Origin: Bacteroidaceae bacterium
GTDB taxonomy: Bacteria; Bacteroidota; Bacteroidia; Bacteroidales; Bacteroidaceae
NCBI GenBank assembly: GCA_045612925.1
Contig: JAZKZX010000060.1
Coordinates: 25,866-89,865 of the forward strand
Direction of reading: 5' to 3'
Length of the DNA stretch: 64,000 nucleotides
In this document: one piece after another, positions 5,309-23,702 of the stretch
How the letters are laid out: every line of letters starts with the position of its first letter
Position numbering within the stretch: the stretch's first letter is position 1
Made by a program: the position numbers and the translations under genes
Notes under the pieces: generated by a model
The model's database searches: none
Seen by the model: only the letters and a program-made list of their open reading frames with translations
Told to the model about the DNA's origin: nothing

Positions 5309-8293
5309 ATGATGAAAACGACCCTATCGCAACCCCCATTCTGGCTGAATGTCAAGAAGGAGTATGTCATTGATAACTTTGACAACTTGTTTCAATATCT
5401 GCGTAGCTATACCTATGTGGATAGTGCCGAAGCATCCGACAGTGACTTTAACCGTACATTCGACTGCCTGGAAGAGGTGGTCGATGACTACCTGGAGCAG
5501 TGTGCTGACGACGGATTTTGCCACAATGTGGCGACGAGGTCGGAGGACCTGAACTTCATGGTCAAGGTGATCAGTACCTATATCATCACGGCCCATAGCA
5601 AGAAGGGCAGGGATGTGGGCGATGTGCTGACGGGGCTAATCGATATCCTTGTGCTGTCGGGGCAGGCCAGCGGCAAAGAGGTGGTAGAGGAACTGAAGGA
5701 TCTGGTCGTGGGATGCCTCTCGGGAAGGCGTGTCGGCAAGCTGGGTATAACATGGGACCTGGTGGCCAAGCTGGACGAGTACTCGCTGAACTTGTTTTGC
5801 CATCATCTGAGTCAGACCACGCTCGAGGGCGAGAAGAACGAGGTGGCGGTATATGAGCAATGTGGCACACTGGTATCGGACAGCCGAGGGGTGCACATCA
5901 TACCTATGAATTATAGCAACTACACGAAGACGAGGACGATGGCACCGCTATTTGACTCGCTGGCGGGAGTGGACATCCTGGGCTCGGGCAAGGAGAGGGT
6001 GGTGACCTATGAGCAGCTGATGCAGTCGTGCAATATGCTGCTGACTGCGCAGTGCCAGGTGAAACCGTCGCCGACCTTGGTGAAAAAGATCTATGAGGAC
6101 AAAGCCACCGTGACGGTGCGCGTGGTGGATATCAACCATGACCTGTGTGTGGAGACGGTGGACCCCAGCTATGAGAGGGTGAAGGGCAATGTAGCTCTTG
6201 ACCCAGTATACTGGGAGTTGACGAAGGAGCAGCTGCTATCGTACCTTAAGGTGGGCGACTACATCAAGGTGACCCGACAATATGACAGCACCTACCCATT
6301 TTCCCTGAAGGCGGCATTCGATGCTTTCCACGATGGGTATGCCGATGGTGCTGCCGGGGGCGAGTATTGGGCGGTGTGTGAGGAGAAGTATGTGGCTGGC
6401 TACCGATGGCTCACTGAAGAGGGGCTCTATGTGAATGTGATGGATAGCAGCTCTGACCCCGAGGAGGCGATGGCAGAAGGATACCTCGTGAGGATCAAGG
6501 TACGCAACTCGAAGAAGGATAGGTATGGCAACCTCGTGCTGAATGGGGCTTACGTGGATGAGGATGAGTGTCCCGATGAGGAATATGAGGAACAGGGCGA
6601 TGAGTTCAGAAGGGTGGCAAGGAAGAATCTCTTCGATGCCTTCCTCGAATATTCGGCTCCTGAGGAACCCTATGCCCCGAAGCAGGAGGTGTGCATGGTA
6701 GATGAGGGGTATGTGGCTGCTCTGTCGCATGTGGTGTACTATCTCTCGCTGCACGAGCGCGACACGCTGGACAGATGCAAGATGCTGCTCGTGGCAAGGT
6801 GCCTGGCTACATTGGCAGGGCGCACCGACGATGCGGCTTATGTGAAGCACGACATGGATTATATCCACTGTTGCGTGAGGTTTGCCGCAGGTGATGCCCC
6901 ATCGGACCTGAAGCTCGAGCATGACGAGTGCTTGGAACAGGTGGCCGAGGTGCACGAGAAGGAGCGTAGGATAGAGGCGCTGAGGCCTTACGACAACCAT
7001 AACAGCGGCAGGGTGGAGTATTTCTTGTCTGACGCAAACATCCTCTATGACAATGTGAAGGGACTGGTAGATGCATCGAATATGCTGAAAGATAAGATTA
7101 GCCCCTTTGAGATAAACAGAATAAAGAAGACGATAGCTACATACCTGGGAGTGGCCGATATGTATAGCAGCATATGCAGCGACCTGACATATTATGGCGA
7201 GGAGAGCGATACGCTCGAGTTCAAGTCGTCAGTGGTGTATACGCCCGGCTCGGGGATGAAGCCTGACCCGGGAAGACAGAAGTGGAACATACTGAAGGCT
7301 ATCTGTGGATTCCTGAACACCTCGGTGGGAGGCGAACTGATCATCGGTGTGAATGACAATGGCAACTCGTGCGGACTCGTCAATGACATCGACCGTCTGT
7401 ATGAGGCCAAGCTGATTCCCGAGAAGTCGGTGGACAAGCTCAGAAACTATATCAAGAACATCGTGGACTGGGCGTTCGTCGATGACACTGGGGTGGCATC
7501 GTATATGGAGATTACGGCTACGCGCATCAAGTATATCATAGAGAAGAATACCGAGGGCGACTGCATCATACGTCTGCAGATAACTCCCTACGAATATGGC
7601 TTGGTGCAGTTTTGCGACAAGCTGGACCGTCCGGAAGATATTGCTGTATCTTACTACCGAACGAGCGGTGCCACCATACCGATGACCAGTGTGCTGAGGC
7701 AGCAGGCCAGGGAGAAGAAGTATGCGAGTACGCTCGATGAGAACTCGATAAAGATTCTTGAGATACAGAAGGCCATGCACGAGCGCAATGTGGTGGTGCT
7801 CAAAAACTACTCTTCACAATCGGGAATCAAGGACCGCAGGGTGGAGATCTATCAGCTGCTGCCCAAGCGCAATGCGGTGATCGGGTACGACATAGAGAAG
7901 AGGACCATCAGGGAGTTTAAGACGACGAGATTCACAAGCATACAAGTAACCAATGACAAGTGGAAGAATGTAACCAAGCACAAGAGGCTGAGCATCGATG
8001 TGTTTGATATGCTGGAGTCGCCCAATGTGCCTCCTATAGAGGTGGTGCTCAAGCTGAAGCGCATCGCCTATAACCTGCTCATAGAGGAGTATCACAACGC
8101 GAAAGAGGAGATAAGGGACAACAACGATAGCGATGCACACGACTATCCCTATGTGTTGCAGACGAAGGTCAACGACATCAAAGGCGTGGGCCGCTTCTAT
8201 ATGGGTCTGGCTAAGGAGATCAAGATCGTGAAGGGTAAGGAGCTGGCAGACTATGCAAGGGAATACATACGGAGTATTCAGATTGTGGAATAG
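5309..8293 (+). CDS. 994-aa multidomain protein: unknown N-terminal two thirds, an AlbA_2/Schlafen-type domain, and a WYL-like C-terminal region.
   Basis: Complete ORF. AlbA_2-type core ESDTLEFKSS...ILKAICGFLNTSVGGELIIGVNDNG at about 7200-7370. WYL-like stretch RRVEIYQLLPKRNAVIGYDIEKRTIREFKTTRFTSIQV at about 7840-7950. Confidence 0.75.
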   Translation: MMKTTLSQPPFWLNVKKEYVIDNFDNLFQYLRSYTYVDSAEASDSDFNRTFDCLEEVVDDYLEQCADDGFCHNVATRSEDLNFMVKVISTYIITAHSKKGRDVGDVLTGLIDILVLSGQASGKEVVEELKDLVVGCLSGRRVGKLGITWDLVAKLDEYSLNLFCHHLSQTTLEGEKNEVAVYEQCGTLVSDSRGVHIIPMNYSNYTKTRTMAPLFDSLAGVDILGSGKERVVTYEQLMQSCNMLLTAQCQVKPSPTLVKKIYEDKATVTVRVVDINHDLCVETVDPSYERVKGNVALDPVYWELTKEQLLSYLKVGDYIKVTRQYDSTYPFSLKAAFDAFHDGYADGAAGGEYWAVCEEKYVAGYRWLTEEGLYVNVMDSSSDPEEAMAEGYLVRIKVRNSKKDRYGNLVLNGAYVDEDECPDEEYEEQGDEFRRVARKNLFDAFLEYSAPEEPYAPKQEVCMVDEGYVAALSHVVYYLSLHERDTLDRCKMLLVARCLATLAGRTDDAAYVKHDMDYIHCCVRFAAGDAPSDLKLEHDECLEQVAEVHEKERRIEALRPYDNHNSGRVEYFLSDANILYDNVKGLVDASNMLKDKISPFEINRIKKTIATYLGVADMYSSICSDLTYYGEESDTLEFKSSVVYTPGSGMKPDPGRQKWNILKAICGFLNTSVGGELIIGVNDNGNSCGLVNDIDRLYEAKLIPEKSVDKLRNYIKNIVDWAFVDDTGVASYMEITATRIKYIIEKNTEGDCIIRLQITPYEYGLVQFCDKLDRPEDIAVSYYRTSGATIPMTSVLRQQAREKKYASTLDENSIKILEIQKAMHERNVVVLKNYSSQSGIKDRRVEIYQLLPKRNAVIGYDIEKRTIREFKTTRFTSIQVTNDKWKNVTKHKRLSIDVFDMLESPNVPPIEVVLKLKRIAYNLLIEEYHNAKEEIRDNNDSDAHDYPYVLQTKVNDIKGVGRFYMGLAKEIKIVKGKELADYAREYIRSIQIVE

Positions 8294-8394: not shown

Positions 8395-10149
8395 TTATGC
8401 AGGTATGTCGCAAAGATTCTCAAGGGTGTCCTTTACCTGTAGGAACTTTGCGTTCTTCTGCAGGTCCATCTGGAAACCGAGCGAGTTGGATAGCTGGTTT
8501 TCGGTCTTGCGCAGTGCCGAGACACGCTGTTCGTTAGCTGCTGCTACGAAGTAGATATCGGCTTGTGTGATGCCCTCCATGCCTGTGGTGTTGATCACGC
8601 GGTTGCCCTTGAGGGACATGTTGTCGTGTTGAGACACGTGGTGGATGGGGTGCACCTTGACATACTCGTGCCCATGCTGAGTGCTGAAGCAGGCAAGCAT
8701 GTCCTCGGCCTTGGCATGGAAGGCCTTGACCAGGCGTACATTGTCGCTTCGGCGACCATTCATGTAGCGCTTGCCCTCTTTTTTGTCGAGGTGGAGGTGG
8801 TAGGCATCGACTCTGTTGACGCAGCCGTCTTCGTACACCATGATGAGGTCGTTCTTGCTCGCTGGGCTATGGATGGGGATGCAGTACTCGAGGTCTGTGT
8901 CGGTAGGGCGCACCTTGCTCCACGACCAGTCGCCATTGGAGAAGAGGTTCATGTAGAAGCTGCCGTGGCCCTGTGCCTCCTCGCCGATGAACTTGAGTCG
9001 GGTGGGCTGCTCGACCTTCATCGCCACGAGGGTCTCCTCTTGTTTGTGTTCGGTGGGGAGAAGATCGCCCTCTGTTAGTACGGCCTTGGGGGCAAACTGG
9101 AGCGCTTCGGGGCGGGCCATGCAGGCTTTGTCGAACACCAGCTTGATGATGGCTTCAGAGCGCAGGTGGGTGGTGCGGTTGCCCATACGCTTGAATGCAT
9201 CGCGCTCATCGTACCAAATGACGCTCTTCGAGGGCTCTATCTCGATGGTACATATGGTGTGATCGTTGTGCTCGGTGAACTTGATGGATACGTAGTCCTG
9301 TGCCACAGGGCCGAGGTGCAGGTTCATGGCCGAGCGCAGCTTGTTTTCGTAACCGTCTTTGTTGGCTTGGTAGGTGTACTTGTCCTTGTCTGAGGAGTTG
9401 AGCATGCCGTAGTCTTGCTCGATGCCTACGGCATCACCGTTGTCGTTGACTCCTATATATAAAGTGCCCCCCTGGGCATTCATGAACCCTGCTATTGTGC
9501 GGAGAATCACGCGCATCTGTGTGTCGATATCTGCACCTGTTGCTCGGGCGGGATACACGATCGTGGACTTGAACTCTACCTTATCGCTCTCCTCACCAAA
9601 CTCACCTACGGGAGTCTCTTCGTTAGAGGAGGTAGGTAATGCTGTAATAGGTGTGGATAGCTCGGGGAACAGTATCTCGTCGAACACGAGGCGGCTGCGA
9701 TTGTTATCCCTCTCATGGATGCCCTTGACGATGAGCGCTACCTCGTCACCCGGCTGCATGAGCTTCTGTTGGGGGCTGGGCTTGTACATATGACTCAAGC
9801 CGAAGACGTCAGTTACTACATAGAAGAGCGTGTCGTTGAAGGTCTTGAGGCTTTCGACGATGAAGAGAGCCTTCTTCTCCTCTCCACGATATGCCTCGGG
9901 GTAGAGCACCATGAGCAGGATCTCCTTGCTTTGCTCGAGCACCAGCTTGCCTGAACCGTATACCTCCTTTACATAGCACTTCATGAGGTTAGCTGGTACT
10001 TGGGGTGAGGCCCAGTCCCACTCGGTCTGGAAGTCGAAGGCGTTGACAGAGAAGGTGTCACCTTGATCATCCTTTAAGTAGATGCGGTTGTTGCTGATGC
10101 CTGTAACTGTGAAGTTGTAGTACTCGCCTGCGCAATAGGTCTTTTTCAT
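8395..10149 (-). CDS. 584-aa protein: OB/S1-like N-terminal repeats, a central AlbA_2/Schlafen-type domain and an unknown C-terminal domain.
   Basis: Complete ORF. AlbA_2-type core ESDKVEFKSTIVY...ILRTIAGFMNAQGGTLYIGVNDNGDAVGI, encoded at about 9440-9600. Its own promoter carries the island box. Confidence 0.75.
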   Translation of the reverse strand: MKKTYCAGEYYNFTVTGISNNRIYLKDDQGDTFSVNAFDFQTEWDWASPQVPANLMKCYVKEVYGSGKLVLEQSKEILLMVLYPEAYRGEEKKALFIVESLKTFNDTLFYVVTDVFGLSHMYKPSPQQKLMQPGDEVALIVKGIHERDNNRSRLVFDEILFPELSTPITALPTSSNEETPVGEFGEESDKVEFKSTIVYPARATGADIDTQMRVILRTIAGFMNAQGGTLYIGVNDNGDAVGIEQDYGMLNSSDKDKYTYQANKDGYENKLRSAMNLHLGPVAQDYVSIKFTEHNDHTICTIEIEPSKSVIWYDERDAFKRMGNRTTHLRSEAIIKLVFDKACMARPEALQFAPKAVLTEGDLLPTEHKQEETLVAMKVEQPTRLKFIGEEAQGHGSFYMNLFSNGDWSWSKVRPTDTDLEYCIPIHSPASKNDLIMVYEDGCVNRVDAYHLHLDKKEGKRYMNGRRSDNVRLVKAFHAKAEDMLACFSTQHGHEYVKVHPIHHVSQHDNMSLKGNRVINTTGMEGITQADIYFVAAANEQRVSALRKTENQLSNSLGFQMDLQKNAKFLQVKDTLENLCDIPA

Positions 10150-10193: not shown

Positions 10194-10238
10194 CAAAGGT
10201 AGGTCAATAAAATAAGAAAGGCTGTGAATCTTGTACAC
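10194..10238 (-). promoter_or_regulatory. Island promoter copy 1: 15-nt box + 22 nt + -7 box.
   Basis: In the gene direction: GTGTACAAGATTCAC (10238-10224), then 22 nt, then TACCTTTG (10201-10194). ATG at 10149. The flanks extend to the inverted repeat GGCTGTG..CACAGCC. Confidence 0.75.
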
Positions 10239-10318
10239 AGCCCTTTGAACTACAAATTTGAACGGAATACAGACCTATTGTTATAGCTGCGCCCCCTCGA
10301 TTGGATTTATCATCGCCA

Positions 10319-11999: not shown

Positions 12000-12044
12000 C
12001 AAAGATAGTGAAAATATTTAACATAGGTCGTGAATCTTGTACAC
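12000..12044 (-). promoter_or_regulatory. Island promoter copy 2.
   Basis: GTGTACAAGATTCAC (12044-12030), then 22 nt, then TATCTTTG (12007-12000). The box starts 3 nt after the stop of the preceding WG-repeat gene. Confidence 0.75.
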
Positions 12045-12047
12045 TAC

Positions 12048-12764
12048 CTATAAGAATATGCCTGAATGGTAAAGGAAGGCTTGATTGATGTCTTCGGTGA
12101 ACTGACCCTTGGAGTCGATGTAGCCCCACTGACCGTGAAGGTTGACCTTGATCCAACCGAGGTGCTGGGGGATGTGTATCTCATCGTAGATGGGTGGAAG
12201 GGGTAGGGCGGTGCCGTATAGACCTACTTTGCCGTCCTTGCGTAGCTCGATGTAGGGGGTGCCAGGGTGTGCGTCGAGGCTGTCGTAGACGGGGGTAAGT
12301 AGCTCTATGTATCTCTGATTGCCGTTGAGTGAGAGCAGGCCTACCTTTCCGTCGCGACGGAAGGAACAGAGGTCGATGATCTCGGCATAGGGTTCGATGA
12401 CATCGCAGACGAAGGGGTACATCTCCGTGCCTAGGCCATCGGCCTTGACGATGCCATACTTGTTGCCACAGCGGGCGATGTAGATTAAGGTGGTGCCAAC
12501 GCTATCGATGAGGCGGAGCTCGTCGTAGAGGGGTGCGACCAACTCGACATCGAACAGGGCGTGGTACACACCGTAGCGTCCGTCGTGCTCAAATACTTCG
12601 GCATATGAAGCGATGTTGCGATAGTGCCATGCCTCATTCTCGAGTCGGATGCGTGTGTCGTCATCGTGCTCGGCTGTTTCAAACTTGAGCATCAGTTCGT
12701 TGAGGCTCTCACGGGTAAGTGGGCGCAACTCCTCGATGGGGTTGCCAAACATGTCGAGGTACAT
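12048..12764 (-). CDS. WG-repeat-containing protein.
   Basis: Repeated units of the type KYGIVKADG, GKVGLLSLNG, GKVGLYG and GQWGYIDSKGQF, which are typical of WG/KWG beta-repeats. Confidence 0.7.
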   Translation of the reverse strand: MYLDMFGNPIEELRPLTRESLNELMLKFETAEHDDDTRIRLENEAWHYRNIASYAEVFEHDGRYGVYHALFDVELVAPLYDELRLIDSVGTTLIYIARCGNKYGIVKADGLGTEMYPFVCDVIEPYAEIIDLCSFRRDGKVGLLSLNGNQRYIELLTPVYDSLDAHPGTPYIELRKDGKVGLYGTALPLPPIYDEIHIPQHLGWIKVNLHGQWGYIDSKGQFTEDINQAFLYHSGIFL

Positions 12765-12865
12765 AGGGGGGTGATAATTAGGAGTTAGGGATTAGGAGTT
12801 AGGGAGAATGCTTGTTTGCTGCATCCTTTCATCTTAAAGCGTTAGTCTGTAATCGTTAGCATCGT

Positions 12866-14566
12866 TCATCTAAATCCTACGACGGGGTGTTTGCGTTGGA
12901 TATGTTCGAGGGACTCGCTATCACAGTAGGTACGCAGGGTGTCGAGCGAGGCCGACTGGTCGTAGAGGATGTAGTCGACCATGCGCTTGCGGGCGATGTT
13001 CTCGATCTGGCCACCGCTGAGACTGTATTCCGAGGCGAGCGAGTAGGCCTCGTCGGTGCTGAGGGTGGGGATCATGGATTGCCAGATGCTCTGGCGTGCC
13101 TCGAGGCTGGGACGGGCAAACTCCACCTTGTAGAGGAAGCGGCGCTCGAAGGCTTTGTCCATGTTGCTGGTGAGGTTGGTGGTGGCGATGAGGATGCCGT
13201 CGAGTTGCTCCATCTCTTCGAGGATGATGTTTTGCAGGGCGTTCTCCATCTTGTCGACACTGCGGGAGACGTGCTCCATGCGGGTGCCGATGATGGCATC
13301 GGCCTCGTTGAATAGCAGGATGGGAGCCTTGCTGCTCTTGGCGCACAGCTTGCGGTAGCGTTTGAAGAGCTTCTTGACGTTCTGCTCCGACTCGCCCACC
13401 CACTTGCTCTTGATGTCGGTGATGTTGACCTGCATGATGTCGCGCCCCGTGGCCTTGGCCAGCTGGAGGGCGGTCTCGGTTTTGCCCGTGCCCGGAGCTC
13501 CGAAGAAGAGGCAGGCGAAGCCCCTGCGCATGCCGCTCTCGGCGAGGCGGTGCTGAATGGCCTCGAACTGTTCGGGCTGGAGCAGCTGGCACAGCTTGTC
13601 GATGGCCTCGCGCTCGGTGGGGTTGTAGTACATGGACTTACCGACGATGTCCTTATGGCTCAGTAGACCGGCACAGTGGTCCAGCGTGTCGTCGGTCTCC
13701 CAAGCGAGGCCGAGCTCCTCGGAGAGCTGCTGGCGCACCTCGGAGGAGGGGGCTATGGAGTTGGAGCTTCCCATGAGGTCGGACTGGCTGTGGTATTCGA
13801 GGAGCGCCCCCTGGAGCAGGGGATTGGTGCCCGAGCTGATGCCCGAACTGATGTGCCCCCATGACCTGCGCTCGAAGAGAAAGCGGTATTGGTTGCTGAC
13901 GATGCGGGTGTCGCCACTGTTGACATACTCCCTGCAGCAGTAGAGGAAGAGGACCTGATCGTCGAGGCGGTGCTGAGCGATGCACTTGCACACGCTCAGC
14001 GTGCCATTCTTCTGGATGAGGCTGTTGAGTTCGCCATGGAGCTCCTTTGCCTCCATCAGCTTGTCGTCGCACTGGGTGAAAAGGTCGTCGATGCGCTCGA
14101 AGAACTCTGCTAGGGAGAGCCCCTCGTCTGTGGGGGGGATGTACTCGACATTCCTCATGTAAGCCTGTGCGGCAGCGGGGATGACGACGTACTGGATCTC
14201 ACCATCCATGTCCTTGACCTTACGGACGATGCGGCGATCGACCAGCTCGCCTATCTCGGGCATGTGGGTGATCATGTGCATGTTGCGTGTGTCGAGGTAG
14301 TGGGCCATGTTCTTCGTGCTGAGCGGACCTGCATGGTCGATGAGCATGGCTATGACCATTGACTGCAGTGGGGTAAACTGCAGGCGCTCCTCGAGGAGAG
14401 CGAAGGCCTCCTGTGCATTGGTCAGCGACTCGGGGTCGAGACTGCAGCCTCTGGACTCGATGAGCACTGTCTCCAATGCAGCGATGAGGGTGTCCTTACC
14501 GCTGACAACCTCTGTGGCAGCGATGTCGGTGGCGGATCTGGTGGTTCTTAATCTTCTTAGTCCCAT
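12866..14566 (-). CDS. AAA+ ATPase (classic AAA clade) with a winged-helix-like N-terminal region.
   Basis: Walker A FFGAPGTGKTETA. Walker B ILLFNEADAI. Second region of homology ATTNLTSNMDKAFERRF. Confidence 0.85.
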   Translation of the reverse strand: MGLRRLRTTRSATDIAATEVVSGKDTLIAALETVLIESRGCSLDPESLTNAQEAFALLEERLQFTPLQSMVIAMLIDHAGPLSTKNMAHYLDTRNMHMITHMPEIGELVDRRIVRKVKDMDGEIQYVVIPAAAQAYMRNVEYIPPTDEGLSLAEFFERIDDLFTQCDDKLMEAKELHGELNSLIQKNGTLSVCKCIAQHRLDDQVLFLYCCREYVNSGDTRIVSNQYRFLFERRSWGHISSGISSGTNPLLQGALLEYHSQSDLMGSSNSIAPSSEVRQQLSEELGLAWETDDTLDHCAGLLSHKDIVGKSMYYNPTEREAIDKLCQLLQPEQFEAIQHRLAESGMRRGFACLFFGAPGTGKTETALQLAKATGRDIMQVNITDIKSKWVGESEQNVKKLFKRYRKLCAKSSKAPILLFNEADAIIGTRMEHVSRSVDKMENALQNIILEEMEQLDGILIATTNLTSNMDKAFERRFLYKVEFARPSLEARQSIWQSMIPTLSTDEAYSLASEYSLSGGQIENIARKRMVDYILYDQSASLDTLRTYCDSESLEHIQRKHPVVGFR

Positions 14567-14687
14567 AGTTAGAGCATTTTAGTGTTTAGAGTTTAGTGTT
14601 TAGTGAGTCATCCGGATGGAAGCCAATAGCTAACAGTCAGCAACCAACCGACAAGTACCGTGTGTAGGGGAGGAGCACCCTGCTTAT

Positions 14688-15404
14688 TCAAAAGTTGGGG
14701 CGGAAGTTGTACCACCACTTGTCCTGGTCTTCGTCGCTGAGGGGCTCAGCGAGGAACTGGCCATCGCCGCTGATGTATCCCCAGGTGTCACCGAGGCGTA
14801 CGTGTACATTGTCATTCTCGTCGGGCTCCATCTCATCGTAGATGGGAGCTACATAGCTTCCATGCAGTGTGCAGAGACCATACTTGCCCTCGTTCTCGAG
14901 CATTACGATGTGGTTGAACGGCTCGTAGATGGTATCTACCATGGTGGGGAGGAGCTCGGTGCCGTCGGGGCGGAGGATGGTGGCCTTGCTGCCGCGGTGG
15001 ACGATGAAGTGGTCGGTCCAGGGGCAGAAGGTGATGTAGTCGTAGATGAAGTCGCAGATGGGTTTGCCACTGCCGTCGGCGTTTACGATGGCATACTTAT
15101 CCTCCCCGTTCATGACGGGCACGGGGAGCTCGCGCCAGTGGTCGTAGCGGTAGCGGGCGCCAATGGCCTTGTACAGCGCGGGGATGCGCACCTGGCCAGT
15201 GATGTCCTTGAGGCCCGTGAGACCGTTCTCGGTGAACTCCTGGTCGAAGAGGTCGTACTCGTCATGTAGCGCCTCCATCTTCTCGATGTACTCGTTGGCG
15301 AGGTTGAAGTCACCGTTGCGCATAGCTGCGTTCATCTCTGCGTTGTAGGTGGTGAACTTGTTGATGATCTCAGCGGTGGGGAGGTTTTTGCTCTTCTGTG
15401 TCAT
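14688..15404 (-). CDS. 238-aa WG-repeat-like protein, paralog of 18647..19366.
   Basis: Shares long identical runs with the paralog (FDQEFTENGLTGL, VDTIYEPFNHI, VHVRLGDTWGYIS). First gene after island promoter copy 3. Confidence 0.75.
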   Translation of the reverse strand: MTQKSKNLPTAEIINKFTTYNAEMNAAMRNGDFNLANEYIEKMEALHDEYDLFDQEFTENGLTGLKDITGQVRIPALYKAIGARYRYDHWRELPVPVMNGEDKYAIVNADGSGKPICDFIYDYITFCPWTDHFIVHRGSKATILRPDGTELLPTMVDTIYEPFNHIVMLENEGKYGLCTLHGSYVAPIYDEMEPDENDNVHVRLGDTWGYISGDGQFLAEPLSDEDQDKWWYNFRPNF

Positions 15405-15455
15405 AGCAGTAAAGACTTTAAGGTTAATGTATACGTGTTTTCAACTTTCACGCTG

Positions 15456-15500
15456 CAAAGTAAAAGCTTTTTCCCCAGAAAGGCTGTGAAACCTGTACAC
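15456..15500 (-). promoter_or_regulatory. Island promoter copy 3.
   Basis: GTGTACAGGTTTCAC (15500-15486), then 22 nt, then TTACTTTG (15463-15456). ATG at 15404. Confidence 0.7.
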
Positions 15501-15628
15501 GGCCGAATAATGTGTTAATTTTGTGTTAAGTAGATGGACGGATTTGGAAATCTCGGATTTTTGTTATAATATTTGTAAACACATAGCACAGCAATAAATC
15601 TTTATCCATCCTATTAATATATTTGATT

Positions 15629-16324
15629 ATGGAAAGACCGACTTATCCTTTAGACAGACGAGTGCTTGAAATCATTATTCATGATTTAGGTATGGAATCT
15701 AAGGTCTGCCTTGACGCAGAATCTAAAGCTTCTTCGTCAACATATGATGAAATCGCTATAATCATAGCAAATAAAGCGTGGGCATATATGTCAAGGCCGG
15801 GTGATAAACGTACCGAAGAGTATAATCCGTTGGATAGAATCACTTGGGAACGAATTTTTGGACAATTATCATCCAAGTCAAAATGTAGCATTAGAACACT
15901 TCAGCAGATAGCGCATGCTTTAGAATATCGCAACTGGGATGATTTGATGAAATGTATAGAAGACGACTATCATAATATAATTGAGAGGGGAATAGGTAGA
16001 GGACATTATGCATCTAGGATAAGTGTATCATCTAATAGATGTCACAAAATTAGTGAGGGTGACAAAGTGGATATAATTTGGGATAAATACCATAGAGGAA
16101 TCGCAAGAGCAGAATTGACATATCTTGGAAATAATCGTTATCGTGTGGACGATAGAGAAAATTGTAAACTTGAGCCAGGAGACGAGTTTATTTGTAAGGA
16201 TTATATGTTGCCATCTTTGTACTTTACTAATATAATAAGAGGGGGTGAGTCTATAGGCACGTACCATGGTGAGGGAATGTTTAAGAGGATTATCATTCAT
16301 AGGAATGGTGAACTCATAAAGTAG
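15629..16324 (+). CDS. 231-aa protein of unknown function, paralog of 19679..20416; candidate regulator.
   Basis: ATG at 15629; the track starts at a TTG six nt earlier. Shared N-terminus PTYPLDRRVLEII. Divergent from a box-bearing promoter. Low G+C. Confidence 0.7.
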   Translation: MERPTYPLDRRVLEIIIHDLGMESKVCLDAESKASSSTYDEIAIIIANKAWAYMSRPGDKRTEEYNPLDRITWERIFGQLSSKSKCSIRTLQQIAHALEYRNWDDLMKCIEDDYHNIIERGIGRGHYASRISVSSNRCHKISEGDKVDIIWDKYHRGIARAELTYLGNNRYRVDDRENCKLEPGDEFICKDYMLPSLYFTNIIRGGESIGTYHGEGMFKRIIIHRNGELIK

Positions 16325-17332: not shown

Positions 17333-18223
17333 TTAATTGTTTGTTCTTATTTCTGCTTCTCTTTCAACGGCTAATCGCTCGAGCGAGGCTTTGGCCTCTT
17401 CGTCGCCCCGCTCGGCGGCTTGCTGGTACCAGTGGATGGCTTGCTCGAGGTCTTCGGCAACGCCATAGCCATTTTCGTAGCAATAGCCAAGCATCTCCAT
17501 GGCATTCTCGTCGTCTTGCTCGGCTGCGAGACGGAAGAGTTCTACGGCTCGCTCATCGTCTTCCTCTACGATGTCGCCATCGAAGTAGAGGGTGCCAAGG
17601 GTGAATAGGGCGTCGGCATCGCCCTGATCGGCGGCTTGGCGGTACCAATAGATGGCTTGCTCTCCGTCCTTCTCGACCCCCAAGCCCTCTTCGTAACAGG
17701 TGCCGAGGTGGTACTGGGCATAAACATCGCCTTGCTCGGCGGCTTGCCGGTACCAATATGCTGCTTGCTCATCGTCTTGCTCGACGCCCTCGCCGTTTTT
17801 GTAGAGACTGGCAAGGAGTGTCTGGGCAAACTTGTTACCTTGCTCGGCTGCGAGTCGGTACCAGTGGGCGGCTTGAGTATCGTCCTGCTCTACCACCTTG
17901 CCTTCTAAGTAGTATGAGGCTATGCGTCTTTGGGACTCGGCAAATCCCTGCTCTGCTGACTTGCGAAACCAGAGGTATGCTTGCTTGGGGTTGGGCTCGC
18001 CGTCATAGCCCTTCTCGTACCATACGCCCAGGGCGCACTCGCCACGGGCATTGCCCTGCTCTGCTGACAGGGTGAAGTAGTGATGGGCCTTGGCGAGGTC
18101 TTTCTCTGTGTCAATGCCATTGGCATAGCGTAGTCCAAGTTCGCACTGAGCAGCTGCATCGCCCTGCTCGGCTAATGCCTGCAGCTCCTGGAGGGTGGGA
18201 GTGTTTTCGTTGGGGTGTGTCAT
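17333..18223 (-). CDS. Sel1-like repeat (SLR/TPR-family) protein.
   Basis: About seven tandem units of the type AAEQGnaxAqxxLGxxYexGxGVexDxxqAxxWYrxAA. A -7 box TACATTTG (complement of 18247-18254) lies 24 nt before the ATG. Confidence 0.85.
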   Translation of the reverse strand: MTHPNENTPTLQELQALAEQGDAAAQCELGLRYANGIDTEKDLAKAHHYFTLSAEQGNARGECALGVWYEKGYDGEPNPKQAYLWFRKSAEQGFAESQRRIASYYLEGKVVEQDDTQAAHWYRLAAEQGNKFAQTLLASLYKNGEGVEQDDEQAAYWYRQAAEQGDVYAQYHLGTCYEEGLGVEKDGEQAIYWYRQAADQGDADALFTLGTLYFDGDIVEEDDERAVELFRLAAEQDDENAMEMLGYCYENGYGVAEDLEQAIHWYQQAAERGDEEAKASLERLAVEREAEIRTNN

Positions 18224-18646: not shown

Positions 18647-19366
18647 TTACTCCTCCCAGTCGGGGTCGAAGTTGTAGAGCCACTTGTCGTAGTCTTCGTC
18701 GCTGAGGGGCTCGGGGAGAAACTCGCCCTCGCTACTGATGTAGCCCCAGGTGTCACCCAGGCGTACATGTACCTTGTTGTCCTCGTCGGGCTCAATCTCT
18801 TCGAAGCGGGGAGCCACGAAGTCGCCACCTAAGGTGCAGAAACCATACTTGTCCTCATCCTTGAGGATGATGATGTGGTTGAACGGTTCGTAGATGGTGT
18901 CTACCATAGCGGGGAAGAGTGCAGAGCCGTCGGGGCATAGGAGGGTAGTCTTGTTTCCGACATGTGCTCTGAAGTCGCTGGTCCAGGGGAAGATTTCGAT
19001 ATAGTCATAGGCAAACTCGCACAGAGGTGTGCCACTGCCGTCGGCCTTGACGATGGCATACTTGTCCTCGCTGTTCATGACGGCTACGGGGAGGCTGCGC
19101 CAATGGTCGTAGCGGTAGCGGTCACCGATGGCCTTGTACTGGGCGGGGATGCGCACCTTGCCGGTGATGTCCATGAGGCCTGTGAGACCATTCTCGGTGA
19201 ACTCCTGATCGAAGAAGTCGTACTCGGCGGTGAGTGCCTCTACCTTTCTCAAGTACTCGTTGGCGAGGTCGAGGTCGTTGCTCTTCAGGGCGGCGTTCAT
19301 CTCAGCGTTGTAGGCTACGAAGGTTGAGATCGTCTCGGCGGTGGGGAGTAGTTTTGTCTGTTCCAT
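18647..19366 (-). CDS. 239-aa WG-repeat-like protein, paralog of 14688..15404.
   Basis: Complete ORF. See the paralog entry for the shared runs. Confidence 0.75.
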   Translation of the reverse strand: MEQTKLLPTAETISTFVAYNAEMNAALKSNDLDLANEYLRKVEALTAEYDFFDQEFTENGLTGLMDITGKVRIPAQYKAIGDRYRYDHWRSLPVAVMNSEDKYAIVKADGSGTPLCEFAYDYIEIFPWTSDFRAHVGNKTTLLCPDGSALFPAMVDTIYEPFNHIIILKDEDKYGFCTLGGDFVAPRFEEIEPDEDNKVHVRLGDTWGYISSEGEFLPEPLSDEDYDKWLYNFDPDWEE

Positions 19367-19417
19367 GTGAATGTAATGTTTTAAAGGTTTATAACTCGTG
19401 TTTCAATTTTCATGCTG

Positions 19418-19462
19418 CAAAGTAATACATATTTTTTGTGAAAGGCTGTGAATCCTGTACAC
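19418..19462 (-). promoter_or_regulatory. Island promoter copy 4 (proximal).
   Basis: GTGTACAGGATTCAC (19462-19448), then 22 nt, then TTACTTTG (19425-19418). ATG at 19366. Confidence 0.7.
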
Positions 19463-19518
19463 GCTCGAACAAATTTTCTTTATATGTCAGTAAACTCGTG
19501 TCCTCAGTTTTCATGACG

Positions 19519-19563
19519 CAAAGTAATATATAATCTATGAGAAAAATCGTGAATCCTGTACGC
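19519..19563 (-). promoter_or_regulatory. Island promoter copy 5 (distal, a tandem duplicate of copy 4).
   Basis: GCGTACAGGATTCAC (19563-19549), then 22 nt, then TTACTTTG (19526-19519). Confidence 0.6.
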
Positions 19564-19678
19564 GGCTCGTTTTTAGACGATTTTGTTGGGAAGTGCTTGG
19601 AAATGTCGAATATTTTTTATAATATTTGCAAATCGAGTAACGAAAAATCTTATACTAATCTTAATACCTATATATATT

Positions 19679-20416
19679 ATGGCAAATCCTACTTATCCAC
19701 TGGACAGACGAGTGCTTGAGATTATCATGGTGCTTACAGAAACTACACGTGAGGTTAATCTCGATACCGAAGCTAAGGCAACTAACGCCGTGTTTGAGAA
19801 AATTAGCACCAAGGTAGCAGATGAAGCATGGGAGATGGTGCGAGGAAATAGAAGTGAAGATGAACGCACTAAGGAGTATAAACCTAAGGATCCTAATACG
19901 TGGAAGCGCGTATTCGGGCACAACAATATGAGCAAGGGGTCTACCATCGGCACTGAAACTCTGAATCAGATATTGCTATTCCTTGACTACGCAAAGTGGG
20001 AAGATGTAGTAAAAGACCTCGACAATTTGTATAAGCGTGTCGTAGAAGAGCAGCAGCCCATTCGTAAAGCTGATGATGTGTCGGAACAAACACCGTATAC
20101 CAACTTCAGCCACCTGAGACCGGGCGATGAACTGGATGTGTATTGGCTCAAGAGTAGCAGATATGATGCGCCAGGCGAGGCTTGCATGAAAATTCGTTAT
20201 CTGGGAAGTTATGGAACTTATGGTGCACCTAAATTCCATATCAATGCCGTGCAGAACTGCTCGCTCGAGGCAGGAGAGGATTTTGATGCCCAGTGCTTAG
20301 AAGAGGGCATGAAGATTATGCTCACCAACCGACGACTCAACAATCGCCACAGAGGCAATTATGTGAGCGGCAGTGCGGTGACCTCTATCAAGATTTTCCG
20401 CAAGAAGGATTGCTGA
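19679..20416 (+). CDS. 245-aa protein of unknown function, paralog of 15629..16324; candidate regulator.
   Basis: ATG at 19679 (MANPTYPLDRRVLEII...). The track ORF starts upstream at a non-ATG codon. Confidence 0.7.
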   Translation: MANPTYPLDRRVLEIIMVLTETTREVNLDTEAKATNAVFEKISTKVADEAWEMVRGNRSEDERTKEYKPKDPNTWKRVFGHNNMSKGSTIGTETLNQILLFLDYAKWEDVVKDLDNLYKRVVEEQQPIRKADDVSEQTPYTNFSHLRPGDELDVYWLKSSRYDAPGEACMKIRYLGSYGTYGAPKFHINAVQNCSLEAGEDFDAQCLEEGMKIMLTNRRLNNRHRGNYVSGSAVTSIKIFRKKDC

Positions 20417-20533
20417 TAGGGAAGTATTCTCTTTTCCCAATATCTGTCAGTTGCATATATTATATATAGAATTAATATGTGGTTTGAATAGGGCTATTAA
20501 CGTAGGGAAATAACTATATAAAGGAATGTGAAT

Positions 20534-23500
20534 ATGGTGTGTATAGATGCAAGGAGATTGGCTTTATGGGAGTCCATGTCTGAAGAACAGAGATTGGAAA
20601 CATTGATTCAATATATGCAAAAATATGTTGTTGACAGGACTTATGATAACTATATTTTGCTTGCATTAGCTGCTAATGGCTTTTTGGATATCACATACAC
20701 TCATCAACCATTAGACGAATCAGTGCTTCGCCATATGGATAAGCCCCATGTGGTATTCAATCATGATCCAGATGGTATATGGAGAAAAAGGGTTGTTGAC
20801 GAAATAAATATTGTCCATATGGTCCCAGACAATCATCTGTTTCATCCGTTAGTAAAATATATGCAATCATTTTATGCTAATGGCTATTCTCGTTTATTGG
20901 ATATATACTCTTCAAAATTCGAAGCAGATTTTATGCTCTCTTATCTGCTATTATTAATAGGACAAGAGAATCTTAAGAGAAATTTTCGTAAAATATTACT
21001 TGATACATATCGACCTGAAGTAGACAATACTTTACATTTAACAACGAGTCCTATAGAAAGGAAATATGGAAATTGGGAAGCTTTTGCGAAAGCTTATTTA
21101 AATATAAATCACGGAAGAGTTCTTGATGTTTGTGCGGGTATTGGAACGTTTGCCATGCATATAGATTTGAAGAATACGACATATGTAGCTAATATGCCCA
21201 AGCGAATGGAAAATGATTTAATGAAAATGTTTTTCTATTCTGATGCTGAGTTTTCTTCTTATTACAAGCATAATCAAATTCAGGTGTGTGAGGATGATTT
21301 ATCTGATTTGGTGAAAAAAGGGCAACTATTTGACTATGTTATTTTCAATGGAGATAATATGTATAATATACATAATCTCGGGAAGGGAGAAAGTGATTTT
21401 ATAATAGAGTCTCATGATGTATTAAATCCTTTTCGTTTTAAAGAGGATTCACTTGAGTTAATAATGAAGTTGTTGTCTTCGGGTGGAAAGGCTTTGGCGG
21501 TAGTTGAAAATGAGAATTTATCTTATTTCCCAGAGGATTTGTATGGACATTGTATTGTTGATGTAATTCTAATTAGTCCTTATAGGAGTATTGTTTTATT
21601 GAATAACGATAAGAAGGTTAATGCAATCAAGGTGTATGATCGAACAACGTGGAATGATTTTACAGCAGAACGATTATTGGATAGCATTAACAGGCAAGAA
21701 GGTTTAATTACAATAACTCCTGAGTACTTAGATTGCATGGGGGGATATCTAAATGTTGATATTCTCAAACGGGATTTATATGAGATAGAGGTCCCTGTAG
21801 GGTACAAACTCCTCAAACTAGATAATATTGTGAATAGTGTTATTCCATCAATATATTATGGTTTATATGACAGTACTAAAATTTTGAATTACAATATAGA
21901 GGAATGTACTCCATTATCACCTTATGTTACCGCTCTTAATGGGCGATTCCCAGCAAAACATGAAAAAGACAACCCTTTCTCGTATTTCACTATTAAAGAT
22001 AGAGTTGTACTCATTCATTGCTTAAATAGGGAAAACTATAAGACTTGTATTTTTGACCCCAAAGAAGGAGAAATTGCTGTTGATTCGAATTATGTATACC
22101 TTTCTATCGATGAAGAGAAAGTTTGTATCGACTATCTTGTGTATCAAATGAATGAGGAGTATTTTCTTAAACAAATATTCCCTCATGGAAGGGAAAATAT
22201 AAACCATGTAGAGGATGAAGATATTTACTCTTGTCAGATTCTCGTCCCAGATGGAGAATCAAGTATAGAGCTCCAAAAGCAATTCATCGAAGACCTACGG
22301 CAAAGAGAAATTGCAAAGTTCGCTAAAAATTATGGATACGACTTGGGTAAATTTGTGCAGTACGAAGCCAGCAACCTGCCCAAGGGAACAACGTTGCATA
22401 GTAAAGAATATACCTATACCATTTTGGGAAATATCGGTTATGGTGGCTTCGGCAAGGTTTATAGGGCTATGAATGAGGATACCATGACGGAGGTTGCTAT
22501 TAAGGAATTCTTCCATAATGCACTTCAAGTGAGAGATCCTCAGACGAATGAGGTTAAGGTCAAATTTTCAGATTTTGATGCTATTGACTTTGCGGAGAAG
22601 AAATTTTGTGGTGAAATAGAAAAAATAAAGGAGTGCGCTCACGACAATATCGTAAAGGTATATGAGTTCTTTAGGGAGAACAATACTTGCTATTACTCTA
22701 TGGAATATATCGATGGGGAAAACCTCGTAAATAAAAAATGCATCGGAGAGCGTGAGGCACTTGCTATTATCAGACAGGTGGCTGGAGCCTTGAAGGCAAT
22801 GCATGAAAAGGGGTACAATCACTCGGATGTGAAGCCACAAAATATCTTAATAGATGACAATGGAGTGGCTACCTTGATTGATTTCGGGGGTGCACACTAC
22901 TATGGATATGACAACGATGAGGGGGTGTCGATATCGGGCAATTCGGTTGCCATGAAGATTGAGTCACCAGGATATACGCCAAAGTGTGCCTATGACACAC
23001 AGAAATTCCATGCAGGAAGGGATATCTATTCATTGGGCGCGACACTGTATTATATGCTTACTGGTAATTCACCTGCAACTATCGATAAGCAGATGAAGCC
23101 CGACAAGATATCTTCCAAGTCGTGGAGGGCAATATGCAAGGCAATGGAGGAGGACTCAAGTAAATGGCTCAACAGCATGGATGAGTTCTTAGCGCTTTTG
23201 CCTAGCGATGAAGAGGAGAAAATAGACAATATAGATGTGTCAGAGCCAACAAGAAAATGGCGAATAACTCCAACCCCAATAGTGGAACTAAAGATGGATG
23301 AGGTGTTTGTCTTTGGAAGCAACATTAAAGGCTTACATACTGGCGGTGCTGCAAAGCAAGCGCTTAAATGGGGAGCGCAAATGGGCGTAGCATCTGGTCC
23401 CATGGGGGATACCTATGCTATACCTACGGTAAATGTTACGGGGCTTGATGCGATTGAGGGATATGTGTCGCAATTCATAAAATATGTAGAGGGGAATGAC

Positions 23501-23656
23501 CATATAACCTTTTATGTAACAGCCATTGGTTGTGGCAATGCTGGCTTCTCTCCCGAGCAGATAGCTCCTCTCTTCAGAGATTGTATCGACTTGTCCAATG
23601 TCTATCTGCCCGAAAGCTTCTGGAGAGTACTCCGAAATAAGGGCCTCATAAAGTAG
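20534..23656 (+). CDS. 1040-aa fusion: SAM-methyltransferase-like domain with degenerate motif IV, a Hanks-type Ser/Thr kinase and a C-terminal A1S_2505-like domain.
   Basis: MTase motif I RVLDVCAGIGTF. At the motif IV position, FDYVIFNGDN replaces NPPY/F. Kinase motifs GYGGFGKVY, VAIKEF, HSDVKPQNILI and DFGGA. C-terminus VFVFGSNIKGLHTGGAAKQALKWGA..GDTYAIPT...AIGCGNAGF. ATG at 20534 (the track starts at a GTG at 20528). Confidence 0.8.
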   Translation: MVCIDARRLALWESMSEEQRLETLIQYMQKYVVDRTYDNYILLALAANGFLDITYTHQPLDESVLRHMDKPHVVFNHDPDGIWRKRVVDEINIVHMVPDNHLFHPLVKYMQSFYANGYSRLLDIYSSKFEADFMLSYLLLLIGQENLKRNFRKILLDTYRPEVDNTLHLTTSPIERKYGNWEAFAKAYLNINHGRVLDVCAGIGTFAMHIDLKNTTYVANMPKRMENDLMKMFFYSDAEFSSYYKHNQIQVCEDDLSDLVKKGQLFDYVIFNGDNMYNIHNLGKGESDFIIESHDVLNPFRFKEDSLELIMKLLSSGGKALAVVENENLSYFPEDLYGHCIVDVILISPYRSIVLLNNDKKVNAIKVYDRTTWNDFTAERLLDSINRQEGLITITPEYLDCMGGYLNVDILKRDLYEIEVPVGYKLLKLDNIVNSVIPSIYYGLYDSTKILNYNIEECTPLSPYVTALNGRFPAKHEKDNPFSYFTIKDRVVLIHCLNRENYKTCIFDPKEGEIAVDSNYVYLSIDEEKVCIDYLVYQMNEEYFLKQIFPHGRENINHVEDEDIYSCQILVPDGESSIELQKQFIEDLRQREIAKFAKNYGYDLGKFVQYEASNLPKGTTLHSKEYTYTILGNIGYGGFGKVYRAMNEDTMTEVAIKEFFHNALQVRDPQTNEVKVKFSDFDAIDFAEKKFCGEIEKIKECAHDNIVKVYEFFRENNTCYYSMEYIDGENLVNKKCIGEREALAIIRQVAGALKAMHEKGYNHSDVKPQNILIDDNGVATLIDFGGAHYYGYDNDEGVSISGNSVAMKIESPGYTPKCAYDTQKFHAGRDIYSLGATLYYMLTGNSPATIDKQMKPDKISSKSWRAICKAMEEDSSKWLNSMDEFLALLPSDEEEKIDNIDVSEPTRKWRITPTPIVELKMDEVFVFGSNIKGLHTGGAAKQALKWGAQMGVASGPMGDTYAIPTVNVTGLDAIEGYVSQFIKYVEGNDHITFYVTAIGCGNAGFSPEQIAPLFRDCIDLSNVYLPESFWRVLRNKGLIK

Positions 23657-23657
23657 C

Positions 23658-23702
23658 GTGTACAAGATTCACAGCACGATCAAAAACTTGTAATTATCTT
23701 TG
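23658..23702 (+). promoter_or_regulatory. Island promoter copy 6 (plus strand).
   Basis: GTGTACAAGATTCAC (23658-23672), then 22 nt, then TATCTTTG (23695-23702). The box starts 2 nt after the kinase-fusion stop. ATG at 23732. Confidence 0.75.

Follow-up and report, generated by a model that had tools for sequence, protein, structure and literature searches.

A Bacteroidales fusion protein of a degenerate methyltransferase-like module, a Hanks-type kinase and a predicted minimal macrodomain

We analysed the gene at 20534..23656 in a 64,000-nucleotide (nt) stretch of DNA from a Bacteroidaceae bacterium (NCBI GenBank assembly GCA_045612925.1, contig JAZKZX010000060.1, positions 25,866 to 89,865 of the forward strand), hereafter called the window. 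This gene encodes a 1040-amino acid (aa) fusion protein that belongs to the Hanks kinases, to the macrodomain superfamily (A1S_2505), and, as a degenerate derivative, to the N6_Mtase/target recognition domain (TRD) lineage. With moderate confidence, we read the fusion as an undescribed, sequence- or modification-specific DNA sensor for anti-phage immunity, which would signal by phosphorylation, be reset by a phosphatase encoded downstream, and be coupled to ADP-ribose. Related proteins and loci are denoted below by P and L numbers, respectively.

Domain composition of the fusion protein

The gene and its domains are as follows.

20534..23656 (+): 1040-aa fusion gene; N-terminal domain, probably dead N6-methyltransferase (MTase)-like domain, TRD, linker helix, Hanks kinase, and predicted macrodomain
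20534..20923 (+): family-specific alpha/beta N-terminal domain (aa 1-130); AlphaFold2 (AF2) predicted local distance difference test score (pLDDT) ~85-93
20930..21733 (+): class I (N6-adenine, gamma-type) DNA-MTase-like domain (aa ~133-400); from hhalign, hidden Markov model (HMM) alignment, structure model, and BFVD
21734..22258 (+): TRD of the type I HsdS/type IIG kind (aa ~401-575); from alignment with P0109, Methylase_S matches of relatives, and BFVD
22259..22408 (+): conserved long helix and linker (SSxERQKQxIEDLRQxEIA...DLGKFVQY, aa 576-625) leading from the TRD to the kinase; from invariant columns and the model
22415..23182 (+): Hanks-type Ser/Thr kinase, non-RD (HSD), aa 628-883; from Pfam Pkinase and Foldseek
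23303..23620 (+): predicted minimal macrodomain (A1S_2505/phrog_2072), aa 924-1029; from NF049995, phrog_2072, AF2, and Foldseek

The open reading frame (ORF) runs from 20534 to 23656 without interruption, and residues are counted from its ATG; the longest version of the ORF begins at a GTG at 20528, two codons 5′ of this ATG. The motifs quoted in a preliminary description of this gene, made from the letters of the sequence, were all found in place: RVLDVCAGIGTF at residues 195-206, FDYVIFNGDN at 266-275, GYGGFGKVY at 635-643, VAIK at 654-657, HSDVKPQN at 763-770, DFG at 783-785, VFVFGSN at 924-930, and AIGCGNAGF at 997-1005. The domain order given there was correct, and the gene is AT-rich as described, with a GC content below that of its neighbours throughout. 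This content climbs from 5′ to 3′, being 0.34 for aa 1-625, 0.43 for the kinase, and 0.47 for the C-terminal domain, while neighbouring genes have 0.57-0.60 and the entire window 0.50. An assembly artefact is excluded because 25 full-length homologues from independent metagenomes share the architecture. The full-length AF2 model has a mean pLDDT of 74.8. An insertion of ~20-30 residues (MYNIHNLGKGESDFIIESHDVLNPFRFKED, aa 276-304, window 21359-21445), predicted to be disordered (model pLDDT < 50), immediately follows the degenerate motif IV in the window protein, in P0001 (a 98 % twin), and in P0004; other family members lack it.

No direct match to aa 1-620 was obtained in Pfam, NCBIfam, PADLOC, or PHROGs. 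Pfam N6_Mtase missed the MTase-like domain even at E = 1, and a sequence-profile search of the PDB with the N-terminal half returned only a putative MTase (E = 1.3). This half was assigned through a profile search of a library of representative proteins combined with hhalign. A 14-member family profile run against 1.84 billion representatives found 112 proteins, which fell into two groups. The nearer group (E = 1e-39 to 1e-13; 830-930 aa) shares the N-terminal region, which is then followed by a Hanks kinase, with no macrodomain and no (N/D/S)PP(Y/F/W) motif. The farther group has kept NPPF and carries a C-terminal GHKL HATPase_c domain in place of the kinase. When 44 relatives were scanned with Pfam, N6_Mtase was found in 19 (best E = 1.5e-40), Methylase_S in 6, and Eco57I in 3.

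Using hhalign, the family profile was matched with 20 NPPF proteins (99.8 %, E = 1.8e-28) over 432 columns covering aa ~133-604. The alignment placed VLDVCAGIGT on motif I and FDYVIFNGDN on FDLIIaNPPF, and a plain HMM alignment agreed with this register. aa 1-130, for which no profile match was found, lie outside the matched region. The AF2 model has the beta1-beta7 topology of class I MTases at aa 194-357. Against BFVD, a viral fold library, the full-length model gave many kinase matches together with an adenine-specific DNA MTase over 751 columns (E = 2.2e-12) and, over 740 columns, a 'Type I RM DNA specificity domain protein' (E = 9.5e-11). The TRD stretch aligns with the part of P0109 that matches PADLOC Specificity_I and mad5. 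What had been described as a region vaguely like a TRD is a real TRD, as judged by the P0109 alignment, the Methylase_S matches of relatives, and the BFVD match.

The motif IV position reads NGDN, NCYN, NLCN, NPYN, NRWA, SLRE, NHGG, or SLHT across the family, while D198, G204, and T205 of motif I are nearly invariant. The MTase-like fold with a lost motif IV, proposed earlier by eye, was thus borne out by the hhalign match, the pairing of NGDN with NPPF, and the lack of conservation at this position. Since motif IV is both altered and unconstrained across the family, catalysis has probably been lost. From these sequence comparisons, we conclude that the unit at aa ~133-604 is a putatively dead derivative of a type I/type IIG MTase-TRD. 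With motif I retained, a nucleotide or S-adenosylmethionine (SAM) pocket may survive, and the N-terminal half may still bind SAM. Near-invariant columns (ILVPDxESSxERQKQxIEDLRQ...DLGKFVQY) extend from the TRD end into the helix behind it, modelled at 577-599.

Pfam Pkinase (PF00069) matched aa 628-883 with E = 8.6e-38 and 130.7 bits against a cut-off of 31.7. The Gly-rich loop and the catalytic residues K657, E694, D765, K767, N770, and D783 are present and conserved in the family. In Foldseek searches against the PDB, the kinase matched PknB (E = 2.6e-13, target TM-score [TMt] 0.76), and also PpkA and Stk1 (~1e-13, ~0.76). The profile score, the catalytic residues, and the fold therefore agree with the earlier claim of a complete Hanks kinase. 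With HSD instead of HRD in its catalytic loop, the kinase is non-RD; distant kinase-fused relatives also have HxD with a residue other than Arg, and the clade as a whole is therefore non-RD. The best PADLOC matches of the kinase were mad6 (E = 2.3e-40) and PD-T4-6 (down to 3e-37), which covered only the kinase domain. A Foldseek search of the PDB with the full-length model was swamped by kinases and was uninformative for the other domains.

The C-terminal domain matched NCBIfam NF049995 'A1S_2505_Nterm' at aa 924-1029 (E = 2.1e-34, 118.1 bits against a cut-off of 45, model positions 1-109 covered). This above-cut-off match over the full model establishes membership in the 'A1S_2505 family phage non-structural protein' family, as proposed in the preliminary description. 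The domain also matched phrog_2072, a family without assigned function (E = 1.6e-31), and Pfam Macro missed it. Homologues of 130-150 aa with ~50 % identity occur as stand-alone proteins, some of them named 'Macro domain-containing protein'. The AF2 model of aa 907-1040, built from a 47-sequence alignment, has a pLDDT of 94.8 and a predicted TM-score (pTM) of 0.90. All of the best 50 Foldseek matches in the PDB were macrodomains (E = 5e-4 to 2e-2, probability 0.94-1.0, query TM-score [TMq] ≤0.65), and they included MacroD2 (E = 5e-4), macroH2A1.1, the PARP14 and PARP9 macrodomains, Af1521, TARG1, Poa1p, YmdB, and viral nsp3 X-domains. The conserved loops FVFGSN..G.H.GGAA and VT.IGCG.AG are the counterparts of the ADP-ribose-binding loops of macrodomains, and a weak sequence match places IGCGNAG on IGTGNAK of PARP14 macro 3.

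Its predicted structure identifies the C-terminal domain as a minimal macrodomain (~110 residues), and from its loops it is predicted to bind or hydrolyse ADP-ribose. The LOG/DprA-like Rossmannoid fold suggested earlier did not stand: no LOG, DprA, or YpsA structure was among the best 50 PDB matches, and a LOG/DprA/SLOG fold was rejected. With a macrodomain fold, ADP-ribose takes the place of generic nucleotide binding as the functional link. This gives A1S_2505/phrog_2072, a widespread but uncharacterised phage family, a fold and a likely ligand class. The contexts of stand-alone macrodomains of this type were not decisive, being a toxin-antitoxin (TA)-rich islet in Bacteroidales and plain chromosome in Brachyspira. 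In the Bacteroidales case (L093-L095, 4778-8585), the stand-alone A1S_2505-type gene comes right after an MNT/HEPN pair and Fic, near a Zeta-toxin gene.

Distribution, variation of the presumed sensor half, and companion genes

A search of 5.8 billion protein clusters gave 26 close relatives with 48-98 % identity, all metagenomic and unnamed, and 25 of them are full length with identical architecture. Among 185,579 species-representative genomes, there was one full-length relative, in a Bacteroidaceae metagenome-assembled genome (L007, 56 % identity). With such numbers, the protein is not a common housekeeping kinase of Bacteroidales. Mean identity of the relatives to the window protein was 48 % in the N-terminal domain, 44 % in the MTase-like domain, and 43 % in the TRD, and 70 % in the linker helix, 73 % in the kinase, and 80 % in the macrodomain. 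P0002 is a mosaic: its TRD is 44 % identical to that of the window protein, while its kinase and macrodomain reach 92-97 %.

20534..22108 (+): hypervariable 'sensor cassette' (aa 1-~525); from blastn against L001, L003, L007, and L090

In blastn comparisons, the window aligned with L001, L003, L007, and L090 at 76-95 % on both flanks, with flanking genes 84-95 % identical in nucleotides, and similarity to these loci vanished over most of the upstream gene, here called X, and over aa 1-~525 of the fusion. Similarity returned at window position 22109 for L003, L007, and L090 and at 22126 for L001. Between loci whose flanking proteins are 87-97 % identical, the fusion was ~56 % and X 53-66 % identical. 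This pattern resembles, by analogy, the swapping of TRDs in hsdS genes, and variation of this kind is expected of a specificity determinant under diversifying selection. A shufflon-type mechanism was rejected; no second or silent copy of any part of the fusion, and so no silent sensor or TRD cassette, was found within the window, which indicates allelic replacement rather than a local shufflon.

The fusion lies between two conserved companions.

19676..20416 (+): gene X, 246 aa, directly upstream of the fusion; present in L001, L003, L005, L007, L087, L089, and L090
23732..24508 (+): putative PPP-type (calcineurin-like) phosphatase; Pfam Metallophos E = 7.6e-9

The order X, fusion, and Metallophos phosphatase on one strand was kept in every macrodomain-bearing locus (the window, L001, L003, L005, L007, L089, and L090). 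X is 241-277 aa long across loci and forms 26 unnamed clusters, in none of which a Pfam domain was found. A PDB sequence match of X to a bromodomain was weak and probably spurious, and this assignment was rejected. X has a paralogue at 15623-16324 (35 % identity, E = 1e-37), which agrees with the earlier view of the upstream neighbour as a paralogue; no kinase gene follows this second copy. The phosphatase contains the motifs GDVHG, GDYCD, and GNHD (GDxHG, GDxxD, and GNH(D/E)), and its own promoter region carries a box repeated in the island, in keeping with the 'box-driven phosphatase' of the preliminary description. It also accompanies macrodomain-less relatives: in L008, a copy with 47 % identity comes after one of them, and in L091, a copy with 50 % identity is two genes downstream of another. 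The pairing of kinase and phosphatase is therefore older than the fusion of the macrodomain. The phosphatase is presumed to be the antagonist of the kinase.

Relation to known systems and proposed function

In the literature searched, the coverage of which was incomplete, there was no MTase-like-TRD-kinase fusion, with or without a macrodomain, and no characterisation of A1S_2505; within that coverage, the architecture is not a described system, as had been supposed. We classify the fusion with kinase-linked, restriction-modification (RM)-derived defence, in which it is distinguished by the presumed use of a disarmed MTase for sensing, a cassette covarying with X, and the covalent link between phosphorylation and ADP-ribose modules.

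The MADS system of Pseudomonas aeruginosa (mad1-8) resembles it in having a Ser/Thr kinase (mad6), a type I-like specificity subunit (mad5), an N6-MTase (mad2), and an ATPase (mad8), and there the kinase works with the MTase and the specificity subunit (10.1101/2023.03.30.534895). A distant relative of the N-terminal half matches mad5, and a neighbouring AAA+ ATPase weakly matches mad8 (E = 3.9e-5). However, MADS consists of eight separate genes with an active methylase, without a macrodomain and without a PPP phosphatase, whereas here the MTase-like domain, probably dead, the TRD, and the kinase are in one chain. MADS occurs in Proteobacteria, Actinobacteria, and Nostocales, and the fusion in Bacteroidales; under the MADS rules, MAD7 and MAD8 are mandatory (10.1101/2023.03.30.534895). 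MADS membership was rejected, with antiphage_MADS6 at 102.5 bits against a cut-off of 460, no MAD7, and no active MAD2.

Cooperation of a kinase with an MTase and a specificity subunit also has a precedent in Pgl/BREX-2 (PMC4365076, PMC12839542). Like the island studied here, that defence locus combines MTase-type recognition (PglX), a kinase (PglW), a phosphatase-family protein (PglZ), and an ATPase (PglY). PglW is seen as a sensory hub with kinase and DNA-binding modules; it comprises a NERD nuclease, a pseudokinase, a kinase, winged helix-turn-helix (wHTH) domains, and an inactive STAND module, without an MTase fold (PMC12839542). The BrxX/PglX MTase is reported to be the DNA sensor needed for BREX defence (PMC11842806). 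Pgl/BREX-2 differs in that PglX is active, that PglZ has an alkaline-phosphatase fold rather than a PPP fold, and that there is no macrodomain. Membership in BREX-2/Pgl was rejected because BREX_PglW scored 26.7 bits against 990 and no PglZ/BrxC-type match was obtained in the scanned neighbours. PD-T4-6 and Stk2 likewise use a Hanks kinase as the presumed effector, but they are 300-550 aa long and have neither an RM-derived reader nor a macrodomain. The PD-T4-6 match spans aa ~625-855; membership was rejected, since only the kinase domain matches.

Nearer in descent are two groups of multidomain proteins. The N6_Mtase-TRD-HATPase_c proteins (P0104, P0109, and P0130) have the homologous scaffold over the 432 columns aligned above, with an ATP-using C-terminal domain joined at the same point after the TRD helix. 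In contrast to the fusion, they keep NPPF and match Pfam N6_Mtase/Eco57I, and they have a GHKL ATPase instead of a kinase and no macrodomain. This apparently unnamed family comprises these three and ~60 further proteins of 800-950 aa and is the sister architecture to the kinase fusions. The macrodomain-less MTase-like-TRD-kinase proteins (P0078-P0108; L008, L087, L091, and L092) share the putatively dead MTase, the TRD, and the non-RD kinase, and their islands are of the same type, with AAA+, WG-like, X-like, and ART/NADAR genes. Their chain of 830-930 aa, however, stops directly behind the kinase. They are the parent clade, which is also undescribed as far as found. Classical macrodomains (MacroD2, Af1521, TARG1, and DarG) have the same fold and two ADP-ribose loops but ~170 residues against ~110 here; unlike in the stand-alone A1S_2505 proteins, the macrodomain is fused to a kinase, which is confined to this clade. 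Macrodomains are known to erase as well as to sense ADP-ribose derivatives, and in DarTG-like pairs NADAR takes the place of Macro (PMC9503650).

From the features above, we infer DNA binding, the activation and targets of the kinase, the role of the phosphatase, the ligand of the macrodomain, and the anti-phage effect. The dead MTase-TRD would read the sequence or the modification state of cognate, presumably foreign, DNA. The conserved HsdS-like helix would relay DNA binding to the non-RD kinase, probably by dimerisation as in half-HsdS and PknB-type kinases. The kinase would then phosphorylate host or phage proteins, leading to infection arrest or to the activation of neighbouring effectors, and the downstream phosphatase would reverse the phosphorylation and prevent autoimmunity. 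The macrodomain might supply a second input by recognising an ADP-ribose mark or a small molecule; alternatively, it might remove ADP-ribose in cis, for example that added by phage ADP-ribosyltransferases. The earlier proposal of a sensor-kinase defence or abortive-infection effector is plausible, and it is strengthened because the gene lies in a defence island, has a hypervariable sensor cassette, and has a conserved phosphatase partner. The island is judged to be a defence island from the DruF/DruL-, IetA-, and SLFN/AlbA_2-like proteins of the window, from the VapE, ART-PolyVal/NADAR, SbcCD-like, and Mrr genes of related loci, from the mad6 and PD-T4-6 matches of the kinase, and from the low GC content of the fusion.

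Kinases occur in several RM-related defence systems, namely MADS, Pgl/BREX-2, and DndF, and to our knowledge, how DNA recognition couples to phosphorylation in them is not established. Since the presumed reader and the kinase are here covalently joined and the reader is presumably unable to methylate, the fusion is the simplest natural construct for the question of whether an MTase/TRD that binds DNA can activate a kinase, and the exchangeable cassette is a natural swap test of specificity. Phosphorylation and ADP-ribosylation are major currencies of phage-host conflict, which the fusion may connect, and the clade comes from Bacteroidales of the gut and rumen, in which defence systems have been little explored. 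More tentatively than the sensor function itself, the protein may stand as prototype for a new class of pattern-recognition receptors in bacteria, composed of a disarmed RM reader with exchangeable cassettes, a kinase output, and a macrodomain. It would be an equally tentative part of such a reading that one polypeptide integrates nucleic-acid and ADP-ribosylation signals, gated by the phosphatase and by the covarying X.

Several observations weigh against the immunity scheme. The defence role is deduced from gene context. The inter-domain geometry of the AF2 model is unreliable (pTM 0.53), which makes the coupling of TRD and kinase a conjecture. No acidic motif II residue can be made out in the SAM pocket, and SAM binding is uncertain; likewise, the MacroD-type Asp, read by eye, is not conserved, and sequence does not decide on catalysis by the macrodomain. 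The phosphatase is only weakly similar to protein phosphatases (PDB: PP1, Rhizobiales-like; E = 5e-4 to 0.03) and also gives a weak ApaH-like (nucleotide hydrolase) signal. ADP-ribosyltransferase (ART) and NADAR neighbours were not found in the window; the ADP-ribose link is therefore not obligatory in cis. Furthermore, no methylation 'writer' is visible in the locus, which bears on the rule for self and non-self. No ORF of the 64-kb window encodes an NPPY-type MTase, the sole ORF with [NDS]PP[YFW] being a spurious antisense frame.

A different explanation is that the genes form a selfish kinase/phosphatase module of a mobile element, serving addiction or competition between elements, with the kinase toxin-like and the phosphatase its antidote. 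We consider this unlikely, though several observations favour it: the A1S_2505 family is phage-associated (phrog_2072 and the NCBIfam name), stand-alone macrodomains occur among TA genes (Fic, MNT/HEPN, and Zeta), the island has a VapE-like primase at its flank in L001 and L089, the fusion has a low GC content, ART-PolyVal and NADAR form frequent TA-like pairs near the related loci, and Pgl is termed toxin/antitoxin-like (PMC4365076). In the same selfish module, and with the same low likelihood, the phage-type macrodomain would be a counter-defence enzyme, erasing the ADP-ribosylation that host or rival elements introduce through DarT-like or ART toxins. However, no integrase or attachment site was identified beside the module, the phosphatase and other flanking genes are host-like in GC content and far more conserved than the fusion, and simple addiction needs no hypervariable DNA-recognition half. 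Addiction and defence can, moreover, coexist.

A physiological epigenetic reader-kinase, which would convert host methylation or chromosomal sequence into control of the cell cycle, stress, or capsule switching with the phosphatase opposing it, appears still less probable. Hanks kinase/phosphatase pairs are commonly physiological, the best folds are PknB, PpkA, and Stk1, and the box shared by several island genes, including the phosphatase, suggests a regulon. On the other hand, the distribution is very narrow and patchy (the 26 clusters, with one full-length protein in 185,579 genomes), the sensor half is replaced like a cassette, the neighbours are of the defence type, and the composition looks foreign. 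The least probable explanation, to which we attach very little weight, is a still-active DNA (or RNA) MTase that has an unorthodox catalytic loop and is controlled by its own kinase. The conserved motif I (AGxGT), the conserved Rossmann core, and YNPYN at the motif IV position of P0008 would fit this idea. However, motif IV differs in almost every clade, with even its Asn lost (SLRE and SLHT), no nearer kinase-fused relative has (N/D/S)PP(Y/F/W) whereas the HATPase_c-fused N6_Mtase relatives do, and Pfam N6_Mtase is silent even at the permissive threshold given above. The anti-phage sensor kinase is the reading that we prefer.

Cis elements and other genes of the island

The unit of X and the fusion is bracketed by a 21-nt inverted repeat, the arms of which are two copies of a 16-nt box.

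19445..19465 (+): left arm of the inverted repeat, 21 nt, containing the box GTGAATCCTGTACACG; 95 % complementary
23655..23675 (-): right arm of the inverted repeat; its box copy lies 60 nt upstream of the phosphatase start
10224-10239, 12030-12045, 15486-15501, 19448-19463, and 19549-19564 (+) and 23657-23672 (-): copies of the box
12866..14566 (-): AAA+ ATPase (IetA-like), 566 aa; Pfam AAA E = 9.4e-24, PADLOC IetA E = 1.8e-25
18647..19366 (-): WG-repeat protein, divergent from X, kept next to the module; paralogue at 14688-15404

The box, GTGAAnCnTGTACRCG, has six copies, all inside the island, and none of 100 shuffles reached this number (mean 0.72). Five copies lie near a clear start codon, ~60-180 nt upstream and in the same orientation relative to the gene. 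Boxes precede the genes for a 584-aa AlbA_2-like protein, for both WG-repeat proteins, the second of which has two copies in front of it, and for the phosphatase; a PfkB-like gene may be served by the copy at 12030. The box looks like a promoter/operator element shared by the GC-rich genes of the island, and the low-GC unit of X and the fusion lies between two inverted copies.

The AAA+ ATPase has homologues in L003, L005, L007, L087, L089, L090, and L092. It accompanies the module in most loci, as do the WG-repeat protein and a 238-aa protein, and is possibly a further component of it. The minus-strand trio at 12048-15404 (238-aa protein, AAA+ ATPase, and WG-repeat protein) has up to 92 % identity across L003, L005, L007, L087, L089, and L090; it is usually found beside the kinase module and may either belong to the same system or form a separate one. 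The divergent WG-repeat/X pair is duplicated in tandem (14688-16324 and 18647-20416), with the WG-repeat proteins 69 % and the X proteins 35 % identical, and the intergenic regions of the two pairs share an element of ~75 nt. Between the two copies are three minus-strand genes, encoding proteins of 157 aa and 103 aa and a 7-repeat Sel1 protein (17333-18223).

The related loci carry ART-PolyVal and NADAR pairs, an SbcCD-like pair, Mrr (once), and a VapE-like primase; SbcCD-like and Mrr genes were not found in the window. The ART-PolyVal/NADAR stretches are at 12537-18475 in L003, 12015-13183 in L005, 9790-15728 in L007, 14487-20405 in L090, 1718-3662 in L087, and 1261-2430 in L091, and they are often accompanied by a 1158-aa SbcC-like ATPase and a 420-aa SbcD-like phosphoesterase. 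Their recurrence gives a repeated, non-obligatory ADP-ribosylation context for the fused macrodomain.

Downstream of the phosphatase are housekeeping genes (FKBP and others), and the island of L001 ends at the same FKBP gene. On the other side, the 584-aa protein (8395-10149, -) is 97 % identical to the product of an L001 gene with Pfam SLFN_AlbA_2. It shares '...VEFKS..VY...GG.L.IGVNDNG...', as read by eye, with a 994-aa protein (5309-8293, +), a motif typical of AlbA_2/Schlafen-like DNA-binding domains. A 981-aa protein (1916-4861, -) matches PADLOC DruL in its C-terminal part (E = 1.1e-17) and DruF in its N-terminal part (E = 1.6e-9), and its gene is possibly a fused or Druantia-related defence gene bordering the island.

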